Shown here: piece after piece, positions 49,911-64,000 of the stretch
How positions within the stretch are numbered: position 1 is the first letter of the stretch
Layout of the letters: each line of letters opens with the position of its first letter
DNA from: Scenedesmus sp. PABB004
Taxonomy: Eukaryota
Assembly: GCA_014905635.1 (NCBI GenBank)
Contig: JABVCE010000003.1
Location: 1,736,001-1,800,000, forward strand
Length of the DNA: 64,000 nt
Direction of reading: 5' to 3'
Position numbers and translations under genes: made by a program
Notes under the pieces: model-generated
What the model saw: the letters and a program-made list of their open reading frames with translations, nothing else
What the model was told of the DNA's origin: nothing
Databases searched by the model: none

Positions 49911-51209
49911 ATGCGCGCTGCGGCGCGAGGGCCGGCGCGCGCGTGGGCGCCCGGCGCCGTGCCGCGACCGCAGCGGCGGGCGAACAGCAGCAGCGCTCTG
50001 CGCGCCCTGCGAGCGCGCCCCGCGCCCGCGCCAGACGCGGGCGACGCGCCGGGCGAGTCGGCGGCGGCCCTGGGCGCGCTGGCGGTGTCGCTCGTCGGCG
50101 GCGCCGCGCTCGGCGGCGGCCTCGGGCTCGGCCTCGACCCGGCGCTGCCCGCCGCGGTCGCGCCGCTGAGCGCGTCGCTCGGCTGGGCCTACACCATCGC
50201 GTGGACGCTGTCGTTCTACCCGCAGGTCCTCGACAACGCGCGGCGGCGCAGCGTGAGCGGGCTGAGCGTCGACTACCTCGTGTACAGCAGCCTCGGGTAC
50301 GCGGCCTACACGGCCTACACGGCCGCCCTCTACTTCAGCCCCGGCGTGGCCGCCGCGTATGCGGCCGCGCACGGCGGCGCGGCGAGCGACGTGCAGCTCA
50401 TGGACTGCCTCTTTGCCGGCCACGCGCTCGCGGTCAGCGGCTTCACGCTGCTCCAGGCGGCCGTGTACGGCGGCGGCGCCGACGGCGAGGGCGAGGGCGA
50501 GGGCGGCGCGCCGCCGGCGGCGGCGGCGTCGCAGCGGGCGCAGCAGCCGGCGCAGCAGCCGGCGGCGCAGCAGCAGCCCGGCTGGCGCGGGCTGGGCACG
50601 TCGCGCGTGTGCCAGGCGACCGCGCTGGGCGTGGTCGCCGCGGTCGCCGCGTACGGCGGCCACATCGGGCGCACGTGCGGCGGCGCCGACTGCGACGCGT
50701 GGCTGCCGCTGCTGTCGGCGCTCGGCGGCATCAAGGTCACCATGACGCTCGTCAAGTACACGCCCCAGGCGGTCATGAACGCGACGCGGCGCAGCACGGA
50801 GGGCTGGTCCATCGGCAACGTGCTGCTCGACCTCGCCGGCGGCCTGCTCTCGTTCGGCCAGGTCGGGCTCAACGCGCTGGCGCGCGGCGACGCGACCGTC
50901 ATCACCGGCAACCCCGCCAAGCTCGGCATCGCCGCGATATCGATCGCCTTTGACCTCCTCTTTGCCGCGCAGCACTACCTGCTCTACCCGCACACGACGA
51001 CGCAGGCGCAGGCGCAGCCGCAGCCCCCGCGCGGGCGGCCAGGCGCCGAGGCGGCGCAGGGCCAGGGCGGCCCGCCGGATGGTTCGGGTGGCGGCGGCAG
51101 CGGCGAGCGGGCGGCCGCGGGCGCGCGGCGGCCCGCGCTGGCGGCGCGGCGCGTGCCCGCGGTCGCGGCCGCGGCCGCCAAGCCGGGCCGTGGCAAGGGC
51201 CGCGCGTGA
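49911..51209 (+). CDS. CTNS: Cystinosin homolog (PQ-loop vacuolar/lysosomal cystine transporter), intronless
   Basis: LGWAYTIAWTLSFYPQVLDNARRRSVSGLSVDY; VKYTPQAVMN...STEGWSIGNVLLDLAGG; GNPAKLG...FDLLFAAQHYLLYP. Confidence 0.9.
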   Translation: MRAAARGPARAWAPGAVPRPQRRANSSSALRALRARPAPAPDAGDAPGESAAALGALAVSLVGGAALGGGLGLGLDPALPAAVAPLSASLGWAYTIAWTLSFYPQVLDNARRRSVSGLSVDYLVYSSLGYAAYTAYTAALYFSPGVAAAYAAAHGGAASDVQLMDCLFAGHALAVSGFTLLQAAVYGGGADGEGEGEGGAPPAAAASQRAQQPAQQPAAQQQPGWRGLGTSRVCQATALGVVAAVAAYGGHIGRTCGGADCDAWLPLLSALGGIKVTMTLVKYTPQAVMNATRRSTEGWSIGNVLLDLAGGLLSFGQVGLNALARGDATVITGNPAKLGIAAISIAFDLLFAAQHYLLYPHTTTQAQAQPQPPRGRPGAEAAQGQGGPPDGSGGGGSGERAAAGARRPALAARRVPAVAAAAAKPGRGKGRA

Positions 51210-51936
51210 GGCGGCCGGGCGGGCTGGAGGGGGCGAGCGCGGGCCCTGCCGGCGCGCCGCTGCGGCGAGCGAGCGACCGGGGGGCTCGTGTGTGTACCAC
51301 CAGGCGGGCGGCGCGCGCGGCGCCGGCTGCGCGCCGCCTTGGCGCGCCGGTGCCGCGGCGCGGCTCTGTATACCAACTAGCACGTGTGGCTCGACTGCAG
51401 GGCCGCCTGGACGGTGATGATGATGATTGGTGGTGTTGGTGGGGCAGGGACGGCGGACGGGCGGACGGCGCGCGAGTGTGTGTGTGCGTGCGTGTGCAGG
51501 GGCGACCAGGGCGGCGCGAGGCGGAGAGCGATTGCGCGTGCGCGTGTATGTGTGTGCGCGGGACGACACCACCCACCAGCTGCCGCCTTGATCACGGTCC
51601 ACGCCTCTCCACCCCACCGAGTGCGTCGACTCGCCCGGCAAGCCAGACGAGAGCGTGGCTCGCGCCGCTGTGTGCCGCGCGCCGCCACACGCCTCTGCGC
51701 AAGAGGCGCGCGTGCGCGCGCGCGGCGGGTGCGGCGCAGCAGGGAGGCGCAGACGGCGAAGAAGAAGAGTCAGCGGCTGATGTACACCATATGAGGCCCC
51801 ATTGCTTTGCATCCCCTTGCAGCTGCAGGTTGTGCGCGACAGCAGCTGGATCACGAACAGGCTGGGGGCCTTGTTCGCGCGCGGACCCCTCCGGACGGGC
51901 GGCGCGTGTATGCTATAACCCAAGGGCAACGGCCTC

Positions 51937-53017
51937 TTACAGCAGCAGCGCTCGCAGCAGCAGCCGCCCGCGCGGCGGCCGCGGCCCAGCGCAGCGCGCG
52001 CCCGCCGGCAGCGCCACGGCCCCAGCCGGCCGGCGCGGCGCGCTGCCCCTGCAGCTGCTGAGCCCCGCGCCGCCCCGGCGGCGTGCTGCACCGCACGCCG
52101 CCGCCTGCACACGACGCGCTGGCGGCGCGGACCGCACGCCGCCGCCGCTGCCGCCGCGGCCACCCGCGCCGTCCGCCTGCGGCGCCGGTGCCGGCTCCGG
52201 GCCCGCGCCGGGCTGCTGCTGCGGCTGCAGCACCTGCGCCAGCGCCTGCGCCAGCGCCGCCGTGCCGTCCTGCAGCGGCCGCAGCCGCCAGCACCCCGGC
52301 GGGCGCTCCTCGGCCAGGCCCCAGCGCGCGAGCGCCGCCAGCGCGCTGTCGGCGTCAAAGTCGACGCCCGCGCCGCACGCGTCGGCCAGGAACGCCTCGC
52401 ACGCGGCGTCGAGCGCGCGCGCGCTCCAGCCGGCGCGGCGCGCCGCCAGCGACTCCGGCGCGTCGGCCGCGTCGGGCGCGTCGGCCGCGAGCATGACGCT
52501 GACCGCGACCGCGCACTCGCACAGCGTCGCGTCGCGCAGGCCGTCGATGAGCCGCAACACCACGCCCGCCCCCGTGTCGCGCGCCGCGACGGCCTGCAGC
52601 CGCAGCATCGCCGCGGCCTGCGACGTCGCGCTGGAGCGGAGCGTGGCCAGCACGCGCACCGCGCGCGCCGCGACGAGCCCCGCCGCCGACACTAGCACCG
52701 ACAGCGACCAGCCCAGGTGCTCGCCGTCGGAGAGCTGCGGCCGGCCGGCGGCGCGGGGTCAGAGAGGCAGGCAGGCGGCCAGCCACACGCGGCCGCGGGC
52801 GGCTGCGGGTGCCCTGGCCGGCCGCGCCCCGACGGGCCGCCGCGCTGTGGCGCACCCGGCTCAGCGCCGCCGCCGCCGCCGCCGCCGCGCCCAGCGCCGC
52901 CAGGCTCGACCGCACGACGGCCGTCGCGCTTGGCGCGGTGTCGACGACCTCCGGTGGGAAGCAGAGCTCAAGGTCGGCGAGTGGCACCTCGCCAAACGAA
53001 CGCAGGACAACCCCAGT

Positions 53018-53058
<41 letters not shown>

Positions 53059-54389
53059 TGCCGGCCGCCGGGCCGGCCGCCCCAGCGCCGGCGGCGGCGC
53101 CGCCGCCGGGCTGCGCCTCGCCGCCGCGCGCGCCGCTGGCCGCGGCCTGGGCCGCCTCGACCGCCGCGTCGAGCGCCATCGCGACCGCGCCGCTGCTGGC
53201 GTAGACCGCGGCGGTGGCGGCCGACTCGGCCGCAGCCGCCTGGCTGCCGCCGGCGGCGCCGCCGCCCGGCGCGGGGCGCCCCAGCGGCGCGTGCAGCAGC
53301 ACAACCTCCCTGAACGTGGGCTCCACGAGCGTGAGGCGCTGCCACCAGCACGCGAGCACCTCCCGCGGGCCTGGCATCAGGCTGCGCAGGCTGCGGCGCG
53401 CCACCGCGCGCGCGTGCCGGTGGTGGAGGTCGGCCGACGCAAACGGCAGCAGCTCCGTGTCGCCGCCAGCCGCCGCGCCTGCGCCGGCGCGGTCGCCCGA
53501 ACTGCCGCCGCCGCCGCCGCCGCCGCCGCCCTCGCGCTCCGCGCCGCCGCCGCCGCCGCTGCCGCCGCCGCTGCCCTCGCCGCTGCCGCCGCCGCCGCCG
53601 CCGCGCTCGGCGCCGCCGCCGCCCGCGAGGGCGTGCGCCCAGCGCGCCGCGCGCGCCGCCGCTGCGCGCGCGGGGGCGATCAGCAGGTACTCGGCCAGCA
53701 GGTCGCCCTTGGCCGACAGCCACAGCCCCTCGGCCGTGGCCACGCCCACGCCGCGGTGAAAGACCAGCATCCGGCCCGCCCACGGCGGCAGCCGCGCGCG
53801 CGACAGCAGCGCCTGCTGCCGGGCGGCGCCACTGCAGCAGTCGGCGGGGTCCAGCGGGAGGGCCGCGGCTTGCTGCTGCTCGCGGCGCGCCCACCAGCGC
53901 TCCAGCGGCGCGCCGTCCAGCACGCCATAGTCGACGCTCACCGGGATGTCTGACCGTCGGTGGCGGCGCGGGGCGGGGTGAGCGGCGGCGCCTGCGCGGC
54001 CAGCGCCTGCGCCGCGCGGCCGGCCGGCGCGCACCAAATGTGAACGCGTTGGCCGTCGCTGCCGCCCACTCGGCGGAGGTGAGCGGCACGAAGCGCGCCT
54101 CCAGCAGCGCGCTGGTCAGCCCGTCGAGCAGCTCGCAGGCGGCGGCCTCGCTCATCGCCGCCGCGCCCGCGCGCGCCAGGCCGGCCTTGAGCGAGCGGGT
54201 GGCATCGCGCTGCAGCAGCAGGGCGCACGCGAGCTCAAGCAGATCCAGCAGCGCGGCGTGCTGCGCGGCCAGCCCTGGCGCGGCGTCAGCGACGTGCGCC
54301 GCGAGCACCGCACGCAGGGAGGTCCACTCCAGGTCCAGGTGGCGGTCGGGCGGGCACAGGATGACCACGCCGTCGCTGCTGCCCGCCAT
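51937..54389 (-). CDS. DUF3754/TMEM143-like protein
   Basis: ARFVPLTSAEW...F|DIPVSVD, MLVFHRGVG, LVEPTFREVVLL, LRSFGEVPLADLELCFP, LDAACEAFL...VDFDADSALAALARWGL; about 2 introns. Confidence 0.75.
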
Positions 54390-54727
54390 GCGTCAGGGCT
54401 GCTTGCCGGCAGCAGCAGCGAGCGGCGGTGCCGCGGCGACGTGGCGAGCTGCGGGGTCACCAGCTGCTCAAGCGCACGCAAGATCGCGGTGACGAGCTGA
54501 CGGGGCGAGGAATGAGCGTCGTGGCGCTGCGTCGGTCGCCGCCGTCAGGCACGGTTTGGCGCCGAGCGGCGCAAAAGCCCTGGTCGACGTCAAGGTCAAG
54601 GCGCGTTCACAGGTCCAGCGCGTGAGCCACTGAGGCGCGCAGTCACGGCGGGACGGACGCAGCAGCTGCCCGCGCTGCAGTTGGCAGCAGCGCGCGCCGC
54701 GCGCCGCTGCCGCCGCGGAGCAGAGCG

Positions 54728-57700
54728 ATGCAGGGCCTGCGCCAGCCGCCGCCGGCGGCCCGGCTGTCGGCCGGCTCGCCATGGTGTCGTAGCAGCCTGC
54801 TGCGACCGGCCCACCGCGCGGCGCCGGCGATGCCGGCAGCTGACGCGCTGCCGCGCGTCGGGGCGGCGCGCCGGCGCGGCGGGCCGGCCGCGGCGGCCGC
54901 GGACGGCCTGGCCGCGGGCGGCGCGGCGCAGCCGTCGCAGCCGTCGCAGCCGCCCGCGCCGGCGCAGCCGCCGCCCGCGCCGACGGCGGTCTACCTGCGC
55001 GGCCCGCTCGCGCCGGGCGCGGTCGTGGAGCAGCCCGGCAGCAGCGTGGTGCTGCTGGGCGACCTGCCCGCGGGCGCGCGCGTCGTGGCGGGCGGCGACG
55101 TGATCGTGCTGGGCACGTGCGTGCTGCGGCACCGGGGCGCGCGCAGCGCGCGCAGCACGCGCTCGCGCGCATGCTGCACGCGCCGACGCCCCGCCCTCCC
55201 GCCGCCGCAGGCTCGCGGGCGCCGCCGAGGCGGGGTGCGGCGGCGACGGCGCGTCGCTGGTGCTGGCGTCCGCGGTCGCGCCCGACGCGGCGCTCAGCAT
55301 CGCGGGCCGGCCCGCGCCGCCGCCGAGCAGCGCGGGGCGGGCGACTGGCGTCATGCTGCGCCTCGGGCCGGGCGCGAGCCAGCCAGCATACGAGGCCATG
55401 CCGGGCACGCCGCCGCTGCCAGTGGCCGGCGGCGCGGCCGAGGCGCCGGGCGCCAAGCTCGTGCGCGCGGCGGGCGCGCTGGGCGTGCTGGCGCTGGGCA
55501 TCGCGCTCGTGCTCGCGCCCGCGTCGGTGCTGGGCGGCCTGCTGTCCACCGACGCCGAGAGCGTCGCGGGGGCGCTGCTGGACGTCTTTGTGTTTGGCTA
55601 CATCCTGCTCTCGGTGGGTGGGTGGGTGGGGCCCCGCACGCCGCCAACGCAGCGCTCGGGCGCGCCGCGTGCCTCGTGCCTCGCGGGTGTGCCGCGCGCG
55701 AGGCGCGGCGTCGCCCCACGCCGCCCCACCCACCCTCTCCCAGGGCGCCAAGCTGCTGAGCGACGGCAGCGAGCTGCTCCTGGAGATCGTCAGCCCGGGC
55801 ATCATAGGGGGCGTCGTCCTGCCGGTCCTTGGCGCGCTTCCCGACTCGCTTATCATCCTGACGTCGCTCAACGCACCGGCGGCGGAGGCCGCGTCGACGG
55901 TCGCGGTCGGCGTGGGCACGCTCGCGGGCAGCACGGTGCTGCTGCTGAGCCTCGCGTGGGGCGCGAGCGTGCTCGTGGGGCGCTGCGACCTCGGGCCGGA
56001 CGGCATCGCCATCGACAAGCGCCTCACGCGCGGGTGGGACCTGTTTGCCACTGGAGTCACGGTAGATCAAGACGTGCGCACGGGCGCGGCCATCATGTCG
56101 GCCAGCGTCCTGCTCTACGGCATCGTCCAGGGCCCCGCCGCGCTCGGGTTCAGCCGCTCGCCACAGGCGCGCGGGACGGGGCGAGGCGTGGCGCCACGCG
56201 CGCGCGCCGCGGCGCCCACCGCCGCGCCCGCCCCGCCCCGCGCTGCCCCTTCAGGCCGCGCTCGCCGGAGCGGTGACGTGCCTGGCCTGCATGGTGGCAT
56301 ACTGCGGCTACAGCGTGCTGTTCCCCGCCCTGCAGGCCCGCCGCATCGAGGCGGCGCGCAAGGCGCGCTTCCGCAGCGTCGCGGTCAAGGTGCGCGCCGC
56401 GCCGCGCCGCGCGCGCGCCGCGCGCCGCAGCAGCCCCACCCGGCCCCCGCCCGCGCCGCGCAGGCGCTCGCGGTGCGCAGCAGCGAGCGCTACGGCGGCC
56501 CGCTGGTCGACCCTGCGGGCGCGCTCAACCCGGCGGCGGTGCGGTCAATTTTTGAGGAGTTTGACGCCGACCGCAGCGGCGCCATCGACGCGCGCGAGCT
56601 CCAGGCGCGGCCACCGCCGCGCGCCGGCCCGCGGCCGCGCCGGCGCCCGCCTCTGCGTGCCCAGCGCGCGCCGCCACCGCCCGCGTGCGCGCAGGGCCTG
56701 CTGGTGGGGCTGCAGCTCGGCGGCGGCCAGGCGGACGGGCTGCTGCCGGATGAGGAGAGCCTGGAGTATGTGCTCAAGGTGGGCGGGTGCATGGGAGGCG
56801 CTGTGTGTCAGTGCGTGCAGGGGCGTGGAGGGCCGCCGCCGGCCTGGCTCAGCTGGCGGCGCCGGCGCGGGCTGCTGCCCCGCGCCCCTCCACACCCCCC
56901 CCCCACGCGCCCCCGCGCCCGTCCCCCCGTGCGCGCGCGCAGGAGTTTGACCGCGACGCCGACGCACGCATCAGCTACGACGAGTTCAGCGCCGCGCTGG
57001 GGCGCTGGGTCGGCGAGAAGCTCAGCGCCACCGCGGGGGCGGCCCGGGGGGCGGCCTCGGGCGCGGCGGGCGCTACGCGGCGCTGCTGGACCCGCGCCGC
57101 GGCGGCGCGGCGGCGGCGGTGCTCGCCGACCTGCCGCCGGGCGACCTCGCGGCGCTCGCCGAGACGGCGGCCGCGCTCGAGGGCGAGGCGCCGGACGAGG
57201 CGGCGGAGGACCTGGAGGCGGGCGGCGGCGAGGGCGCGCCGCTGAGCTCGCGCGACATCCTGCTGCGCTCGGTCGTGCAGATGGGCGCCGGCATCGCGCT
57301 CTGCGCCGTGTTCAGCGACCCGCTCGTCGACGCGCTCTCAAACCTCTCGCGGTGCGCCGCCGCGCGCCCGCGGCGGCCCGCGGGCGGCGCGCGCGCCGCA
57401 CCGGCCCTGCCGCCCATGCCGCGCCCGCCGCCGCCGCCGCCGGCGCAGCGCGAGCGGCGTGCCGCCCTTCTTTGTGGGATTCGTGCTGACGCCGCTGGCG
57501 AGCAACTCGAGCGAGCTCGTGAGCAGCCTCGCGTTTGCCGCGCGCAAGCGGCGGCGCACGCTGTCGCTCACGCTCTCCCAGGTCTACGGCGCAGTCACGA
57601 TCAACAACACGATGTGCCTCGGGTGCGGGGGAGGCCCCCACACGATGCGCGCGCGCGCCTGCGGCGGCGGCACCGCCCGTGAGGCCCCCACAGCATGCAC

Positions 57701-58023
57701 GCACACCAGCACGCACGCACGCGCGCGCAGCCTGTTCCTGGTCGTCGTGTACCTCCGCGATCTGCCCTGGGTCTACTCCAGCGAGGTGACCGTCATCGTC
57801 GCCTGCACGCTCGCCGTCGGCTGGCTCGGTGCGCCGCCGCGCCGCCGCCGCGCCGCCGCGCGTGCGCGCGCGCGCCGCCTCGACCCGACCCGCGCGCGCC
57901 GCGCCGCCGCCAGGCTGGAGCCGCTCGTCGTTCCAATCGGGATGGGCGCTTCCTGTTATGGCGCTCTACCCGCTGGCTCTCGGGGGCGTCTACGCGCTCG
58001 ACACCTTCCTGGGCTGGCAGTGA
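54728..58023 (+). CDS. NCL: EF-hand-containing Na+/Ca2+ exchanger-like protein (NCL/EF-CAX) with an N-terminal MinC C-terminal-like domain (alternative ATG 54830)
   Basis: GAKLLSDGSELLLE...GIIGGVVLPVLGALPDSLIIL, GTLAGSTVLLL...GRCDL, two EF-hands (DADRSGAIDARE, DRDADARISYDE), FSDPLVDAL, PLASNSSE, YGAVTINNTMCL; upstream VVLLGDLPAGARVVAGGDVIVLGT|LAGAAEAG; about 9 introns. Confidence 0.9.
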
Positions 58024-58434
58024 CAGACATTGCGACAGCGCGGCGGCGCGGGGCTCAGGGCGGCGGCGGCGGTGCTGTGTGACCGCGCCGCTGATGAAAA
58101 CCATTCGATTGACCAGAGCGGCACGCTCAGGAGCGCAGACCAGCCGCCCAGGCGCAGCAGCAGGGCGCGGCAGCGGCAGTTGGTGCGGGCAAGTCGCCCC
58201 CCGCGCCGGCGCCGCCAGGCCCCGACCGGCGTGCGAGCGGGTGCGCAGGTGCGCAGTCGAGGCAGGAGCAGCGACGTGGCGCCCGGCGTGGCGCCAGCGC
58301 GCGCCGCCGCGACCGGCGCGCCGGCGTCGCGCGCCGCTGCTGGCGCAGGCCCCGGTGCGCAATCGTCCTGGCCCCGTCTCGAGCCCGCGTGTCCAACACC
58401 GACAACGACAGGCTGGCTCAGTGAGGGCGGCGGC

Positions 58435-59280
58435 ATGTCGTTGCTGCGGGCGTGGGCGTACCCGCTGCAGGGCCTGGTCCTGCTCGCGACGCGGCGGGAG
58501 CTGCTGCGCCTGGTGCTGCGCTTCCTGGTCATCGTCACCGCTGCGTCGGCCGCCACGGCGGCCGCCTGGGTCTGGCTCCTCTGGGCGCCGCACGCCGCGC
58601 TGGTCAGCCGCGTGCTCGACCCAAGCTCCCTGCTCGCGCGTGCCGTCGTGCTGGTGGTGCTGCTGGCAGAGGCGGCGCTGCCGGTGGCGCTCATCTACCA
58701 GCGCCGCCTCGAGCGCCTGCAGCGCGGCCTCTTTGACGCCACGCTCGCGCTGCAGGGCGTGACCGCGGTCGCGCCGCTGCACCCCGACGACGCCGCGGCG
58801 CTGCGCACGGAGCTCGCGCGCCGCGACGCCGAGGCGGCGGCCGCGGCGGCCGCGGCCGCGGCGGCCGGCCCCGCGGCCCGCGCCGCGCGCGCCGCCGCGG
58901 CGTTTGCGGCGCGCCTGCTGCTCGGCGGCCCCGGGCCGGGCGAGGGCGTGCTGGCGCGCAAGGCGCGCGACCTCGCGACGCTCGGCGTGTCGCTGTGCCT
59001 GCCGGTGCTGCTGCCGGTGCTGCTGCTGCGCGACAGCTCGGCCGAGGGCGCGCGCCTGCTGGCGCCCTACCTCGAGCGCAAGGGCGCCGCCAGCGACGCG
59101 GCGCAGCACGTGCTGGGCGCGCGGCGCGGCGCGGAGCAGCGCGCGTTTGGCCTCACGGCGGCGTGCCTCGGCTCCGTGCCGCTGCTGAGCTGGGCGCTGG
59201 CGTGCAGCAACAGCGTCGGCGCGGGGCTCTACGCCGCCGAGCTGGAGCGCAAGCACGTGCGCTTCTTCCGGCGGCACTGA
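58435..59280 (+). CDS. EI24/CysZ-like (RRT8/LDS-like) membrane protein, intronless
   Basis: AWAYPLQGL..LATRREL at the N-terminus; several TM helices; C-terminal YLERKG...RAFGL...LGSVPLLSW...SNSVGAGLYAAELE. Confidence 0.65.
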   Translation: MSLLRAWAYPLQGLVLLATRRELLRLVLRFLVIVTAASAATAAAWVWLLWAPHAALVSRVLDPSSLLARAVVLVVLLAEAALPVALIYQRRLERLQRGLFDATLALQGVTAVAPLHPDDAAALRTELARRDAEAAAAAAAAAAAGPAARAARAAAAFAARLLLGGPGPGEGVLARKARDLATLGVSLCLPVLLPVLLLRDSSAEGARLLAPYLERKGAASDAAQHVLGARRGAEQRAFGLTAACLGSVPLLSWALACSNSVGAGLYAAELERKHVRFFRRH

Positions 59281-59551
59281 GCCTGCGCGCAACGAGCCGC
59301 GCCGGGGTGCAACGGCCCGCAGGCCCCGGGGCGCAAGCGGCTGACGCCCGCGCCGGTGCAACCAAGCTGGCGGCGCCGCCGACAGTTCGTTCAGCCGCAC
59401 CGTCGCGACCTCCCGCGCAACGCGCAGCCAGCCGCAGGCCCGCCGCAGCCACCGCCGCCGAGAGCCGCCGCTGCCGCTGCTGATGGCGGCGCGCCGCGTG
59501 CCGGCAGCCCGCGCGTAGCAGCCGTCCGCCCGTCGAGGGCTCCCGGGGGCC

Positions 59552-60396
59552 ATGAGCGGCCGGGACGCGATCATCCTGGACGACGTGTTCGAGGTGATCC
59601 AGAAAGACCCCGATGGCAAAAAGTTCGACCGAGGTGCGCCGCGCTCGCGCCCCTGCGCCGGCGGCGCGACGGGACTCCACCGCGCCGCCGCGCTCGCAGC
59701 CGCGGCCGCGGCGCACGCCGACGCCGGGGCGCGCCGCGGCGGCCGCCGCTGCCGGCTGCTGCTGCGCAGTCTCGCGCTTCGTGTGCCGCTCCGAGCTCTA
59801 CGAGTTCGACCTGGCGCTGGACATCAACATAGACATCTACCCGCTCAAGGTGGGCCAGCGGCAGCAGCGCCGGGCAGCGGACGGGCAGGGCCGCCACGCC
59901 GCCCGCACCGCTGCGGCTGCTGAGCGGCGCGCCCCGCCCCTGCCCCCGTGCGCGCAGGTGGGGGACAAGTTCAACCTCGTGCTGGCGACCACCATCCACC
60001 GCGACGGCACGCCGGAGACGGGAAAGTACGACGAGGTGCGCCGGAGCGGCGGGGAGCTCGCAGCGGCGGCGGCAGCGGCGGCGGCGGCAAGGGCGAGCTC
60101 CCAGCCAGCAGCGGCGCGGCGCGGCCGCGCGCCCACGCCCGCCGCGCCCGCCCGTGCCCCCCCAGAACTTTCCCACGCTGAGCAAGCGGGAGACGCTGAT
60201 GGACGAGTTTGAGTACGTGATGCACGGCCTGGTCTACAAGTACAGCAGCAGCGGCGGCGGCGGCGGCGGCGGGGCGCTGCGCGTGGAGGTGTACGTGAGC
60301 TTTGGGGGGCTGCTGATGAAGCTCAAGGGCGACCCAGCCAAGCTCTCCGTGCTCACGGTCGACTCCAAGACCTACCTCCTCATGCGCCGCGTGTGA
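59552..60396 (+). CDS. RPB8: DNA-directed RNA polymerases I, II and III shared subunit RPB8 (RPABC3)
   Basis: DDVFEV...DPDGKKFDR|VSRF, LDINIDIYPL, DEFEYVMHG, VYVSFGGLLMKLKGD, YLLMRRV; 3 introns. Confidence 0.96.
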
Positions 60397-60665
60397 GGGA
60401 GGGAGGGAGGGAGGGCCGGGAGGCCGAGCACCGCGGTCGCCCAAGACGTGCGCGAGGGCCAGCCCTGGTGTCGCACCGCCGGGCGCCCAGCCGCGGCGGC
60501 GGCCCCTGCCCGTGCGAGGGCCGAGCGCCCGCGCGGGCGGCCGCGGCGCGCGCGACGCCGGCCAGGCGGGCGCAGCACCGAGATGTGCTGTGCGCGGGGC
60601 GCGCGCGGCGCGCGGGGCACGCGGCGGCAGGGACAGCGGGCTCCGCACACGCGGCCCGCGGGTCT

Positions 60666-60670
60666 TTACA
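60666..60670 (-). promoter_or_regulatory. Candidate TGTAA polyadenylation signal for RSP11
   Basis: TTACA on the plus strand, about 23 nt beyond the minus-strand stop at 60693. Confidence 0.4.
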
Positions 60671-60692
60671 TGTGCTGCGCGGCGCGCCTGCC

Positions 60693-61454
60693 TCAGGCGG
60701 CGAGGCGCTGCGCGAGCCCGGGGATGGCCAGCAGGCCCTGGTAGTCGGTGCGCTCCTGCCCCCCCAGCGCCGCCGCCGCCTCGTCCAGCAGGCCGGGGCC
60801 GAGGCTGCGGTCGAGCGCGGCGAGGTGGCGCAGCGCGGCCAGCACCGTCGCGCCGTCCAGCGTCGCCGCCGCGCCGGGCGCAGCGTCGCCGAGCACCTCA
60901 AACGTGGCGCGCAGCGTCGCGCCGAGGCCGTCGCAGCTGAGCGCCAGCAGCAGCAGCAGCGCCTGCACGACCGGCACGGGCGCCGAGGTCGGGACGCGCG
61001 CCGCCGCCAGCACGGGCGCCAGCGTGCTCGGCGCGGCGCCCGCCGCCGCGAGCGCGGCCTCCAGGTCGGCCGCCGGCACCGCGTCGGCGCCGCCCAGGGC
61101 GAGCCGCACAGCGCGCAACTGCGCGACACTGGGCGGCGCGCCGCGCGCGGCCACGCCCGCCGCCGCGGCGTCGGCAAAGTAGTTGGCCGCGAACGAGAGC
61201 AGGTCGGTCGGGCGGCTCCGAATGGCCGCCTTGGTGAACACGCGGAGCACGTCAGCGAGGTCGGGAGGCACTGCGATCTGCGTGCGGAGGCGGCGCGACG
61301 CCGGCGCGGCCAGCAGCACGGGCGGCGCGCGTGAGTGGCACGTGGCCAGCCAGCTGGGAGCGGTAGAAGGGGCGGGTGCAGCAGCTGCGTGGGCGGGGCC
61401 TCTGGAAGCCCGGCGCGCCTGCTCGGCGCAGAACAGTAGCGCGACGTCCGCCAT
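60693..61454 (-). CDS. RSP11: RIIa dimerisation/docking-domain protein, radial spoke protein 11 / ropporin-1-like
   Basis: MADVALLFCAEQ|IAVPPDLADVLRVFTKAAIRSRPTDLLSFAANYF after removing GC-AG intron 61278-61418. Confidence 0.8.
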   Translation of the reverse strand: MADVALLFCAEQARRASRGPAHAAAAPAPSTAPSWLATCHSRAPPVLLAAPASRRLRTQIAVPPDLADVLRVFTKAAIRSRPTDLLSFAANYFADAAAAGVAARGAPPSVAQLRAVRLALGGADAVPAADLEAALAAAGAAPSTLAPVLAAARVPTSAPVPVVQALLLLLALSCDGLGATLRATFEVLGDAAPGAAATLDGATVLAALRHLAALDRSLGPGLLDEAAAALGGQERTDYQGLLAIPGLAQRLAA

Positions 61455-61695
61455 GCTGCAGCAGCTGCAGGCGCCTGAATAGGGCGGAGATGCGGGCGCG
61501 GGATGACGGCGCAGAGGCGTGGAGGGCGCGAGGAGTGGCGCGGAGGCGTCGGGGGCGGACCGCGGCGGCAGCGCGCGTCAAAGTTGACCGAGCAGTTGAC
61601 CGCGCAGCAAGATCACACAGCACCGCGCCGCCGATCACGGGCAGGCGCGTTCGCGGGCCACAGCACCCCCCCCCCCCCCCGGATCCGGCCCCCCA

Positions 61696-64000
61696 TCAGT
61701 CGTCGTGCGCGAGCGCGCCCTGCAGCGCGTGCAGCACGCTGGGGTCGCGCACGACCGCGGCGAAGAGCGCCTGCACGCTGCCGCCGCGGTTGATCACGTG
61801 CTCCTGCAGCCAGGGCTGCGTGCGCGCGGGGATGAACAGATCCACGCGCGTCGCGACGTACCCCGGCGCGCCCCCGCCGCCCCCGCTGCTGCTGCTGGCA
61901 CCTGCCTGCTGCTTCTGCTTCTGCTTCTGCTTCTGCTGCTGCGGCTTCTCCTGCTTCTGCTTCTGCTGCTGCTTCTGCTGCTGCTGCGGCTTCTCCTGCG
62001 GCTTCTCGTGCGGCTGCTGCTGCTGCTTCAGCTGCTGCTTCTGCTGCGCGCCGCCAGCCTGCTTGGCCGCCGCCGCCGCCGCGGCCGGGCCGGCGGGCGG
62101 CGGCTCCGGCGCGGCGGCCATGAGCGCGCCCACGAGCGGGCGGTGCTCGAGCCACCAGCGCAGCGAGCGGCTGTCCGCGCCGTCGAGCAGCACCGCCGGG
62201 ATGTCGGGCTCGCGCCCCGTGTCGTCGCCGGCCATGGTCAGCAGCTCGCCGCGCGGCGCGAGGTTGAGCACCACCAGGCCCACCGCGCCCGCCGCCTGCA
62301 CGGCCATGGCCTTGTCCAGGAAGCTGCACCCGCCGCGGCTCACCACCGCCAGCGCGCCCGCCAGCGACGCGGTGTTGGCCGGCCGGCCGCAGCCGCTCAG
62401 CGGCTCCGCCAGCACCAGCGGCGCGGCGCGCGGGAGGTGGCTCACAGGCGGCAGGCCCGCGCAGCCGCGCCCCGGGTGCGCAAACGCCTGTGCGTGCAGC
62501 CACGTGCTGGCGGGCTCCGACGACGTGGCACGAAAGCCCACGCAGCCCTCGCGCAGCGCCGCGCTGGCGAGGTCGGCGGCGCTCAGCTCCGGCGGCGGCG
62601 CCGAGCACGGCAGGTCAAAGTCGTCATCACCGTCGTCCTGCGCCTGCTGCGCCTGCTGCGCCTGCTGCGCGTCGCCGTGCTCGTTGCTGCTGCGGCCGCT
62701 GCTGCTGCTGCTGCTGCTGCCGCTGCTGCTGCTGCTCCCGTCCTCATCGCCGCCGCCGCCGGCGCGCGCGGCGGCCAGGTGCGCCTGCAGCGCCCTGCAC
62801 ACGGCCGCGGAGGGCGTGGCGCCCGCCCAGCGGTCCGCCGCGCGCGCCGCCGCGAGCCAGGGCGTGTCGCGGGGGCGGCCGCCCGTCGGCGGCCGCGCGC
62901 CCGCCGGCAGCCAGGGCGGCGGGCGGCCCGGCTGCACGAGCGGGCAGTCGGGCAGCAGCGCGAGGCGGTGCCGCGGCTCCGCGAGGTGGTCAAGGCACGC
63001 CCCCGGCAGCGCCGGCAGGCGCGGGCCGAACGACGCCTCCGCCGCCGCGTACTCGAGCGTCGCCGGGGCGCCGTCCTCGCCCGTGAGCGCCGCGAGCAGC
63101 ACCGCCTGCGCCGTGGCGGGCTCGCCGCCGACCGCGGTCAGCTGCAGCACCAGCGCGCCCGGCGGCAGCCCGATCGCGCTGTCGAGCGCGGAGAGGCGGC
63201 GGATGGCGCCGGCGCAGCCGACGGCGCCGTCGCGCACGCGCAGCATGCACAGCACCTGCGCCAGCACCGTGCCGCCCGCGACCGACGCCTGCGCGGGGTC
63301 GGGCCCCGACCCCGCCTCCGCGGCCTGCCCAAAGTTGAGCCGCGCGAGGCGCACGGCGAGGCTGTCGGGCGGCGACGCCGCGAGCGCGGCGCTCGTGGCG
63401 AGGCACGCGCGGCAGCGCCGGTACCTGCGCGGCGCGGCGCGCGGCGCGTGGCGCAAGCGCAGCGCGGCGCGTGGCGCGTGGCGCGGCGCGTGGCGCGGCG
63501 CGTGACGCGGGCGCAGCGGGTGCCGCGCGCCGGCAGGCGCCGGGCGCGGCGCGCGGCGCGCGGCGCGCGGCCCGCGCGCGGCGCCGCACCGTATGCGCCG
63601 GCTGTACACGCGCCGCACGGGCAGCAGCGGCAGCGCCGCGCGCAGCCGCGCCTCGTACCCTGCCTCCTCCGCCTCGCTGCGCACCGCGCACAGCGGCCGG
63701 CAGTTGGACGGCAGCGAGTCGAGCGGCCGGCCCGCCGCCAGGCTCGGCGCGTCGCCGCCCGCGCCGGCCTGCTGCGTCCGCTGCTCCGCCTGCTGCTGCT
63801 GCTGCTTCTGCTGTTGCTGCGGCTGCTGCTGCTGCGCCTGCTGCTCCTGCTGCACCTCTGGCGGCCGCGCGTCGCTGCGCGGCTCCTGCTCCTCGCCTCC
63901 ACCGCCGCCGCCGCCGCCCGACCGCGCCGCCTGCTCCGCCGCCTCGTCCTCGGCGTAGGGGTCGGCGTCGCCGCCGTCGCCGTCGCACGCCGGCCCGCAG
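61696..64000 (-). CDS. 3' part of a PA (protease-associated) domain protein, possibly the C-terminus of an EDEM3-like GH47 mannosidase; 5' end lies outside the window
   Basis: PLVLAEPLSGCG...LAVVSRGGCSFLDKAMAVQAAGAVGLVVLN...MAGDD...PDIPAVLL; Q-rich inserts; intron about 63425-63590. No catalytic domain is visible in the window. Confidence 0.7.
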   Translation of the reverse strand, partial: CGPACDGDGGDADPYAEDEAAEQAARSGGGGGGGGEEQEPRSDARPPEVQQEQQAQQQQPQQQQKQQQQQAEQRTQQAGAGGDAPSLAAGRPLDSLPSNCRPLCAVRSEAEEAGYEARLRAALPLLPVRRVYSRRIRCGAARGPRAARRAPRPAPAGARHPLRPRHAPRHAPRHAPRAALRLRHAPRAAPRRYRRCRACLATSAALAASPPDSLAVRLARLNFGQAAEAGSGPDPAQASVAGGTVLAQVLCMLRVRDGAVGCAGAIRRLSALDSAIGLPPGALVLQLTAVGGEPATAQAVLLAALTGEDGAPATLEYAAAEASFGPRLPALPGACLDHLAEPRHRLALLPDCPLVQPGRPPPWLPAGARPPTGGRPRDTPWLAAARAADRWAGATPSAAVCRALQAHLAAARAGGGGDEDGSSSSSGSSSSSSSGRSSNEHGDAQQAQQAQQAQDDGDDDFDLPCSAPPPELSAADLASAALREGCVGFRATSSEPASTWLHAQAFAHPGRGCAGLPPVSHLPRAAPLVLAEPLSGCGRPANTASLAGALAVVSRGGCSFLDKAMAVQAAGAVGLVVLNLAPRGELLTMAGDDTGREPDIPAVLLDGADSRSLRWWLEHRPLVGALMAAAPEPPPAGPAAAAAAAKQAGGAQQKQQLKQQQQPHEKPQEKPQQQQKQQQKQKQEKPQQQKQKQKQKQQAGASSSSGGGGGAPGYVATRVDLFIPARTQPWLQEHVINRGGSVQALFAAVVRDPSVLHALQGALAHDD

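Follow-up and report, generated by a model that had tools for sequence, protein, structure and literature searches.

A gene of the alga Scenedesmus sp. PABB004 (Scenedesmaceae, Chlorophyceae) was found to encode, on one polypeptide, the C-terminal domain of the septum site-determining protein MinC (MinC_C) followed by an EF-hand Na+/Ca2+ exchanger of the NCL (EF-CAX) family. The gene lies on the forward strand at 54728-58023 of a 64,000-nucleotide stretch of contig JABVCE010000003.1 (hereafter the window, whose numbering is used throughout), and its ten exons were derived from the window sequence read with splicing, from a tblastn exon map and from the splice sites. Both domains exist and are joined in the mature mRNA of related species, and the fusion is very probably a real and conserved protein.

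The MinC_C domain was located on the deposited protein of this locus, 'NCL2 [Scenedesmus sp. PABB004]' (P0004, 1165 amino acids), which is 100% identical to the window across exon 2; a protein search with exon 2 gave 3 proteins at E ≤0.01, with 8,000 candidates scored. Residues 91-161 of P0004 scored 54.8 bits against Pfam MinC_C (PF03775, gathering cut-off 33.2), which bore out the domain call made in the first-pass annotation of the window. The peptide quoted there was recovered as exon 1 joined to exon 2 after removal of the 94-nucleotide intron at 55117-55210, in agreement with P0004, and no insertion or deletion was seen at the junction VIVLGT/LAGAAE relative to transcript-derived orthologues. 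Exon 1 alone matched positions 3-40 of the 102 positions of the Pfam profile (E 1.4e-5, 25.5 bits, below the cut-off) and seven NCBIfam MinC models (best 8.6e-9); exon 2 alone gave no match in the Pfam and NCBIfam scans. The NCBIfam models of full-length MinC scored at most 35 bits against cut-offs of 95-486, and no MinC N-terminal domain (MinC_N) was detected in Pfam scans of P0004, its Tetradesmus counterpart P0005 and its Enallax counterpart P0164.

A profile built from the domains of Scenedesmus and Tetradesmus retrieved 1,860 proteins at E ≤0.001 among 1.84 billion representatives, 13 of them at ≤1e-10 and none at ≤1e-30. Against PDB sequences, all four matches of the same profile were MinC (4v02_C at 5.8e-10, then 5xdm, 6riq and 1hf2). 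When the MinC_C region of Tetradesmus was used to search for proteins of near length, nothing but the query was recovered among 7,995 candidates scored, the filter being crowded by alanine-rich sequences, and no usable match for the fused N-terminal part was obtained from the ESM Atlas. Residues 84-193 of P0004 were modeled by AlphaFold2 from 81 aligned rows as an all-beta domain with a predicted local distance difference test score (pLDDT) of 94.3 and a predicted template modeling score (pTM) of 0.87. In a Foldseek search of the PDB, ranks 1-9 of the 27 matches listed were MinC chains with query TM-scores of 0.71-0.87; the values for 4v02 and 5xdm were 0.84-0.87, the root-mean-square deviation from E. 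coli 5xdm_A was 1.6 Å, and rank 10 had an E-value of 0.66. The beta-helix proposed earlier was thus recovered. Hence, by its profile score and by its right-handed beta-helix fold, the domain is a member of MinC_C, and the glycines of the helix are nearly invariant across the fused domains. The resemblance to MinC greatly exceeds what chance would give.

The fusion was next sought in relatives. Complete transcriptome open reading frames (ORFs) in EukProt carried the whole layout in two other Scenedesmaceae, namely Flechtneria rotunda (P0158, 798 amino acids; MinC_C 66.2 bits, Na_Ca_ex 77.6 bits, EF-hands) and Enallax costatus (P0164, 776 amino acids; MinC_C 52.4 bits, Na_Ca_ex 73.8 bits, EF-hands). 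These transcripts uphold the earlier statement that MinC_C and the exchanger belong to one protein and are not two merged gene models. The alignment was gapless over the window splice junction and over the junction between MinC_C and an additional transmembrane helix (TM0) that precedes the exchanger core, with frame and residues kept in 14 sequences. The same layout was seen in gene models of Tetradesmus obliquus (P0005, MinC_C 56.9 bits) and Raphidocelis subcapitata (P0171, 26.1 bits, E 8.9e-6, below the cut-off) and in four metagenome or ENA sequences (P0059, P0108, P0173 and P0187, 34.6-41.1 bits). The Pfam cut-off was passed by nine fused proteins, and precomputed PF03775 annotations were present in 7/39 NCL relatives. 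Sequence identity between the window domain and the remaining eight complete fused domains is 36-57%; for the exchanger core the value is 74%.

Several N-terminally truncated models begin inside the domain, and these were scored with a fused-family profile built from the nine complete fused domains. The scores were 60.8 bits for P0184, 49.1 for P0185, 35.1 for P0169 of Monoraphidium minutum, 32.7 for P0049 and 27.7 for P0170 of Chlamydomonas sp. UWO241, against 5.9 for the best of 200 shuffles and 3.6 for the best of 23 canonical NCLs. As had been claimed, ordinary NCLs do not carry the domain (0/23 above 3.6 bits). The exchanger-core tree (37 rows, 517 columns, quick search) left out the partial sequences lacking the core (P0059, P0108, P0173, P0176 and P0049). 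All 14 TM0-bearing NCLs fell in one clade with a Shimodaira-Hasegawa-like approximate likelihood ratio (SH-aLRT) support of 99, sister (95) to the Coccomyxa-type canonical NCLs. It was concluded that the fusion arose once, has been retained across core chlorophytes and defines an NCL subfamily; the architecture search across algae suggested earlier therefore showed that the fusion is not limited to PABB004.

In the exchanger part, Na_Ca_ex (PF01699) matched residues 584-713 of P0004 with 55.6 bits, and EF-hand_7 matched residues 476-542 with 44.9 bits, which places an EF-hand pair in the central loop. On exon 3, Na_Ca_ex reached 20.8 bits, below the cut-off of 24.9; this weak first half of the exchanger fits the alpha-1 repeat of NCLs, described in passages of PMC4735048 as poorly conserved. 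The protein is a member of the NCL / EF-CAX family by its membrane domain, its Ca2+/cation antiporter (CaCA) fold and its EF-hand pair. The full-length model of the Enallax orthologue P0164 (pLDDT 81.7, pTM 0.68) matched VCX1 (target TM-score 0.73), AtCAX1, NCLX and NCX_Mj and, separately, MinC and calmodulin-like chains. TM0 appeared as a hydropathy peak of 2.41 at residues 219-237 of P0004 and as a helix at residues 205-226 of the P0164 model (pLDDT 55-70); all 14 clade members have it and canonical NCLs do not. According to hydropathy and the P0164 model, TM0 and five helices precede the EF-hand loop and five more follow it. Six helices thus separate MinC_C from the EF-hands, which would put the two on one membrane face.

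Green-algal organelle presequences typically have N-termini rich in R/K, S, T and A and poor in acidic residues. The first 60 residues of P0004 contain 9 R+K and 2 D+E, and in 5/7 orthologues the corresponding segment, rich in R/K, S, T and A, contains 9-12 R+K vs 0-2 D+E. Residues 1-81 of the Enallax orthologue are disordered (pLDDT ~30). V/T-K/R-A sites such as ...LVKA/T and ...LTKA/T presumably resemble stromal cleavage sites. By its composition the N-terminus resembles an organelle transit peptide, most likely for the plastid; the mitochondrion may be an alternative destination.

The motif through which MinC contacts MinD is altered in the fused proteins. According to reviews and to the structure paper on E. 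coli MinC_C (passages of PMC6803595 and PMC5548801), MinC binds MinD through its RSGQ motif, which contacts helix 7 of MinD. The first-pass annotation had read APG in place of RSG, and alignments to MinC of the PDB agreed: APG at 55010-55018 occupies the RSG place, L-A-P-G-A of the window being aligned to V-R-S-G-Q of E. coli, L-R-A-G-Q of Aquifex and V-R-G-G-M of Pseudomonas. Arginine at this position was found in 0/9 fused proteins, in 4/10 algal proteins of a second type described below, and in 58/62 of the remaining, mostly two-domain, MinC proteins. Such a loss fits a covalent membrane anchor that would make recruitment by MinD dispensable.

Two copies of the window domain were predicted to pair, with interface scores (ipSAE) of 0.56, 0.56 and 0.51 in three runs vs 0.02 for the best control. 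The pLDDT of the partner was at least 85, and at least 85% of the contacts agreed between runs; among proteins whose solved structures pair two copies of one chain, 20/30 reached the mark applied to these predictions, as did 1/23 of those solved as single chains. The predicted interface comprises, in domain numbering, residues 1-8, 19, 22-23, 25, 27, 41, 43, 45, 65, 67 and 110. The suggestion that MinC_C serves as a dimerization module has thereby gained a predicted homodimer, with support in silico only.

Outside the fused family, the domain has its nearest relatives in eukaryotic proteins in which a presequence and MinC_C are followed by a four-helix membrane domain of ~110 amino acids. Examples are Pycnococcus provasolii XRA99440.1, annotated as 'septum site-determining protein MinC', Cymbomonas tetramitiformis KAK3246530.1 and Myrmecia bisecta KAK9817031.1; the set studied consisted of P0011, P0012, P0021/P0159, P0026, P0030, P0065, P0116, P0131, P0148 and P0153. 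The four-helix domain matched no Pfam family, and in the ESM Atlas it matched only small bacterial membrane bundles of a generic kind, with no family passing the threshold. A tree of MinC_C only (81 rows, 108 columns) left 48/78 inner branches unresolved because of the few columns. In this tree the nine fused domains grouped with the four-helix proteins P0012 and P0065, the fragment P0066 and the bacterial-looking P0053 (SH-aLRT 96), and the other eight four-helix proteins formed a separate clade with P0022 (97). P0012 and P0065 also lack the RSGQ arginine. TM0 aligned by hhalign to helix 1 of the four-helix domain over 24 columns at the expected place, with a marginal E of 0.044 and a probability of 1.2%. 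Green algae seem as a rule to have their MinC anchored in a membrane. This second protein class, together with TM0, the organelle-type presequence from 54728 and the spread of the NCL subfamily, lies beyond what the first-pass annotation had described.

We proposed that the locus yields one polypeptide made of an organelle presequence, a flexible linker, a complete MinC_C, TM0 and a ten-helix EF-hand Ca2+/cation antiporter. After import, MinC_C and the EF-hand loop would face the same, stromal, side, where two exchanger subunits would be held together by MinC_C, by way of its classic dimer face. The lack of the MinC N-domain, the loss of the RSGQ arginine and the integral membrane nature of the protein together suggest that its membrane recruitment is independent of MinD. 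The product would be a Ca2+-regulated exchanger of the plastid membrane with MinC_C as a module for dimerization or scaffolding; a residual role in the control of the FtsZ ring would be possible and is not required. We regard this as the best overall explanation, with a probability of about 0.5. Its functional part, a plastid-membrane exchanger with a dimerizing, MinD-independent MinC_C module, is put forward tentatively.

A number of observations weigh against this explanation. The transcript structure of the PABB004 gene was deduced from the transcripts of relatives. Two Enallax ORFs labelled complete, P0006 (588 amino acids) and P0165 (215 amino acids), begin at the methionine of ...AMPGTPPL, equivalent to 55398-55400. 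The clade members P0174 and P0175 showed no MinC_C with either Pfam or the fused-family profile, possibly because their models are truncated, and P0172 (22.2 bits with Pfam, 0.1 with the fused-family profile) speaks against a wider spread. Support from trebouxiophytes is weak: in Elliptochloris bilobata, P0177 reached 20.9 bits with Pfam (E 3.7e-4, below the cut-off) and 2.0 with the fused-family profile. Only amino-acid composition points to the plastid, and the presequences of P0171 and P0173 (2/7) hold 6-7 acidic residues. The sidedness follows from a count of helices and not from coordinates. One lost arginine is no proof of lost MinD binding. The homodimer prediction may be a memory of the solved MinC dimers 1hf2 and 5xdm, so it shows likeness and not proof. 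Finally, passages of PMC4735048 report NCL transport activity for Arabidopsis AtNCL only. As a separate observation, in the P0177 gene model an RRM protein (RRM_1 75.7 bits) precedes the second half of MinC_C and the exchanger, probably through another mis-merged annotation that masks the true N-terminus.

One objection, that a small MinC-like gene and an NCL gene lying head to tail were merged in prediction since stops are rare at 78% GC, draws on the openness of all frames in the region and on the fact that deposited P0004 wrongly merges two downstream genes. It was rejected as scarcely credible: complete transcript-derived ORFs of two other Scenedesmaceae carry the fusion, 14 sequences agree in frame and residues across the junction, and the fusion tracks a single NCL clade. 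A further alternative assumes two products, a long fused protein sent to the organelle and an exchanger-only protein from ~55398 whose TM0 acts as a signal anchor to the endomembrane, as in plant NCL. The Met codon at 55398-55400 lies in the last MinC_C strand and is conserved in some relatives; P0006 and P0165 begin exactly there, and the basic segment and the hydrophobic TM0 that follow resemble a signal anchor. Methionine was found in 6/14 sequences covering the site; the other 8/14 (Selenastraceae and the P0184 group) have leucine there, which rules out internal initiation as a general mechanism. The short ORFs may also stem from incomplete contigs of a single assembly graph; further Enallax contigs are plainly mis-spliced (P0166). 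The first-pass annotation had held that exchanger transcripts starting downstream of about 55330 would refute the fusion; two Enallax ORFs do start there, but the long fused Enallax ORF exists as well. Since this long ORF coexists, leucine prevails in 8/14 and the site belongs to the last strand, an exchanger-only isoform is possible in Scenedesmaceae and was not taken as the general state; the two-product alternative is improbable. Apart from this, the Enallax and Flechtneria transcriptomes contain shorter ORFs (P0006, P0165, P0166 and P0157) with internal-Met starts, retained introns or 3' halves, which could be alternative isoforms or assembly fragments.

The remaining alternatives concern what MinC_C does. 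As a working division-site protein, a permanently membrane-anchored MinC would act on plastid FtsZ, in the way that bacterial MinC_C acts by way of the FtsZ tail, and the exchanger would couple placement or constriction of the Z-ring to stromal Ca2+. The MinC_C fold and glycine pattern kept across classes and the position of MinC_C and the EF-hands on the same membrane side agree with such a role, as do a review that describes both MinC domains as FtsZ-inhibitory (passages of PMC6803595) and other papers, in which land plants are said to have lost MinC and certain algae to have kept a homologue (passages of PMC5855766; PMC4641359 Table 1, where the Chlamydomonas reinhardtii MinC is listed as XP_001692722). 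Yet the MinC N-domain is missing, the arginine at the MinD contact is present in none of the nine fused proteins, a protein fixed in the membrane can neither oscillate nor be dislodged by MinE, nothing indicated a contact with FtsZ, and the green-algal four-helix class, in which the arginine is kept more often (4/10), could be the functional MinC; the division-site role is therefore considered unlikely. A broader form of the idea is a rewired plastid Min system of core chlorophytes, in which MinC was stripped of its FtsZ-inhibiting N-domain and of the arginine that binds MinD and became joined to membrane proteins, one ancient paralogue to the exchanger, so that a fixed dimeric stromal MinC_C would couple Ca2+/ion flux to the place or timing of the FtsZ ring. 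Both the history and the coupling are distinctly unlikely, and if true they would mean a Ca2+-gated mechanism for the division site or its timing that has no bacterial or land-plant counterpart. Alternatively, MinC_C could be an evolutionary relic with no specific role beyond spacing or import, or be cleaved after import. MinC_C is indeed less conserved than the exchanger core, and its functional RSGQ motif is gone, but the intact fold is retained in Chlorophyceae and, more weakly, in Trebouxiophyceae, the structural model is very confident, the glycines are nearly invariant and a dimer face is predicted, all of which makes a relic highly improbable.

The features of the locus are collected in the table below. 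The gene start had been placed at 54980, which was wrong; the ATG lies at 54728. Of the nine introns, seven are GT-AG and two GC-AG, and the first has the ends GTGCGT...CCGCAG. The G+C content was 75-83% across 50000-62000 of the window and all six frames were open in the gene region, with stop-free frames of 100 to nearly 900 codons on both strands; one frame of 881 amino acids (54844-57489) spans introns. ORF length is consequently useless here, and an uninterrupted frame alone is weak coding evidence. This qualifies the earlier argument from the stop-free exon at 55211-55613, which does read through into the exchanger but proves little by itself at a G+C of 0.75-0.83.

Table. Coordinates of the MinC_C-NCL gene in the window.
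Feature	Position	Strand	Evidence or reading
Exon 1	54728-55116	+	reads ...TAVYLRGPLAPGAVVEQPGSSVVLLGDLPAGARVVAGGDVIVLG
Start codon, presequence and Ala/Pro/Gln-rich linker; P0004 residues 1-84	54728..54979	+	first ATG of open frame; no Pfam family in this segment
MinC_C beta-helix, first half; end of exon 1	54980..55116	+	Pfam/NCBIfam matches; alignment to E. coli, Aquifex, Pseudomonas and Thermotoga MinC
Intron 1, 94 nt, GT...AG, phase 2; splits MinC_C	55117..55210	+	direct read; P0004 and transcript-derived orthologues
Exon 2	55211-55613	+	reads LAGAAEAGCGGDGASLVLASAVAPDAALSIAG..., stop-free into ...LLDVFVFGYILLS
MinC_C second half, start of exon 2; last strand ...AYEAM	55211..55400	+	Pfam on spliced domain; AlphaFold2; Foldseek
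Linker, TM0 (~55476-55532) and start of exchanger TM1; rest of exon 2	55401..55613	+	hydropathy; orthologue model
Exons 3 (55744-56166) and 4 (56255-56389): TM1-TM5, alpha-1-like LPVLGALPD	55744..56389	+	Na_Ca_ex match; tblastn; splice sites
Exons 5 (56464-56604), 6 (56695-56778) and 7 (56943-57351): central loop, two EF-hands, TM6	56464..57351	+	EF-hand_7; tblastn
Exons 8 (57449-57622), 9 (57731-57828) and 10 (57914-58023): TM7-TM10, alpha-2 repeat TPLASNSSELVSS	57449..58023	+	Na_Ca_ex
Stop codon TGA	58021-58023	+	C-terminus ...LDTFLGWQ* shared with orthologues ending there

Some irregularities of the gene model were also observed. The GC donors lie at 56167 and 56605 (GCGCGC and GCGCGG), each with a normal AG acceptor. 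Exon 7 contains a break of frame at ~57020-57075 relative to all orthologues, and the length of the coding sequence modulo 3 is 2. There, ...GRWVGEKLSATAGAA... is read in one frame and the conserved ...RYAALLDPRRGGAAAAVLADLPPGDLAAL... in another, the conserved motif RYAALLDP...LPPGDLAAL being out of frame with the rest of exon 7. The cause is either an assembly indel in a G-run or a real lesion; the deposited model masks the break by splicing the conserved motif out.

At its 3' end the deposited P0004 is a chimera of three genes. Beyond residue 725 the conserved stop is bypassed, although the orthologues terminate at ...LDTFLGWQ, equivalent to 58020 exactly. The second part derives from an unrelated membrane-protein gene at 58417-59307 that has no Pfam family, and the third from the gene of the RNA polymerase subunit Rpb8 at 59522-60393 (Rpb8 161.9 bits). 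The downstream ORF at 58024-59277 gave no family in the Pfam scan. The public annotation 'NCL2' is thus corrected by removal of the two downstream genes wrongly appended to it.

No paper joining MinC with NCL/EF-CAX or dealing with a membrane-anchored algal MinC was found in a literature search that reached neither most subscription journals nor supplements such as Figure S9 of PMC3499364. Since public protein records already show the architecture, the sequence itself is not new; the recognition of a conserved MinC_C-NCL subfamily appears to be. The conserved fusion hints at a membrane-anchored MinC relative in the chloroplast. The piece of MinC retained by these algae is the C-domain only, tied covalently to the membrane and, in a whole subfamily, to an EF-hand antiporter. 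If located in the plastid, the protein would be a candidate plastid CaCA-type Ca2+ exchanger of green algae. It also offers a natural experiment on the capabilities of MinC_C in the absence of MinD, and a testable handle on the repurposing of Min parts after endosymbiosis and on a link between Ca2+ and plastid division, with orthologues in tractable species such as Tetradesmus obliquus and in relatives of Chlamydomonas.

Compared with bacterial and cyanobacterial MinC (1HF2, 5XDM, 4V02, 6RIQ), the fused protein has the same C-terminal right-handed beta-helix, for which a homodimer was predicted on the equivalent face in silico, but it has neither the N-terminal FtsZ-inhibiting domain nor the RSGQ arginine. 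It is also membrane-integral rather than recruited by MinD. Its gene is nuclear, encodes a presequence and has an intron that interrupts the domain. The algal four-helix proteins are closer to it in being eukaryotic, in having a presequence and MinC_C as the only MinC domain, and in tying this domain covalently to membrane helices; they differ in their membrane part, which is not an exchanger but a small helix bundle without a known family, and in that some of them (4/10) keep the arginine.

With canonical NCL / EF-CAX proteins (AtNCL At1g53210; Coccomyxa, Klebsormidium) it has in common the ten-helix CaCA core, the alpha-2 repeat, the EF-hands and the C-terminal end. Those of Coccomyxa, Klebsormidium and others carry a short luminal C-x-E-x-Y-G-x-F-P-C-S motif before TM1 and lack TM0 and MinC_C, whereas in the fused protein this motif is replaced by the presequence, MinC_C and TM0. 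Passages of PMC3355786 and PMC4735048 describe EF-CAX/NCL proteins without any N-terminal domain. According to reviews (passages of PMC13650779 and PMC5855766), ARC3, which functionally stands in for MinC in land plants, is a lineage-specific solution for the position of MinC in the plastid Min system; the fused protein may be another. ARC3 is soluble, resides in the stroma and resembles MinC little in sequence (PMC13650779, in the same passages), and nothing in the fused protein resembles it. The fused protein is a member of both the MinC_C and the NCL/EF-CAX families and would work like neither parent alone.

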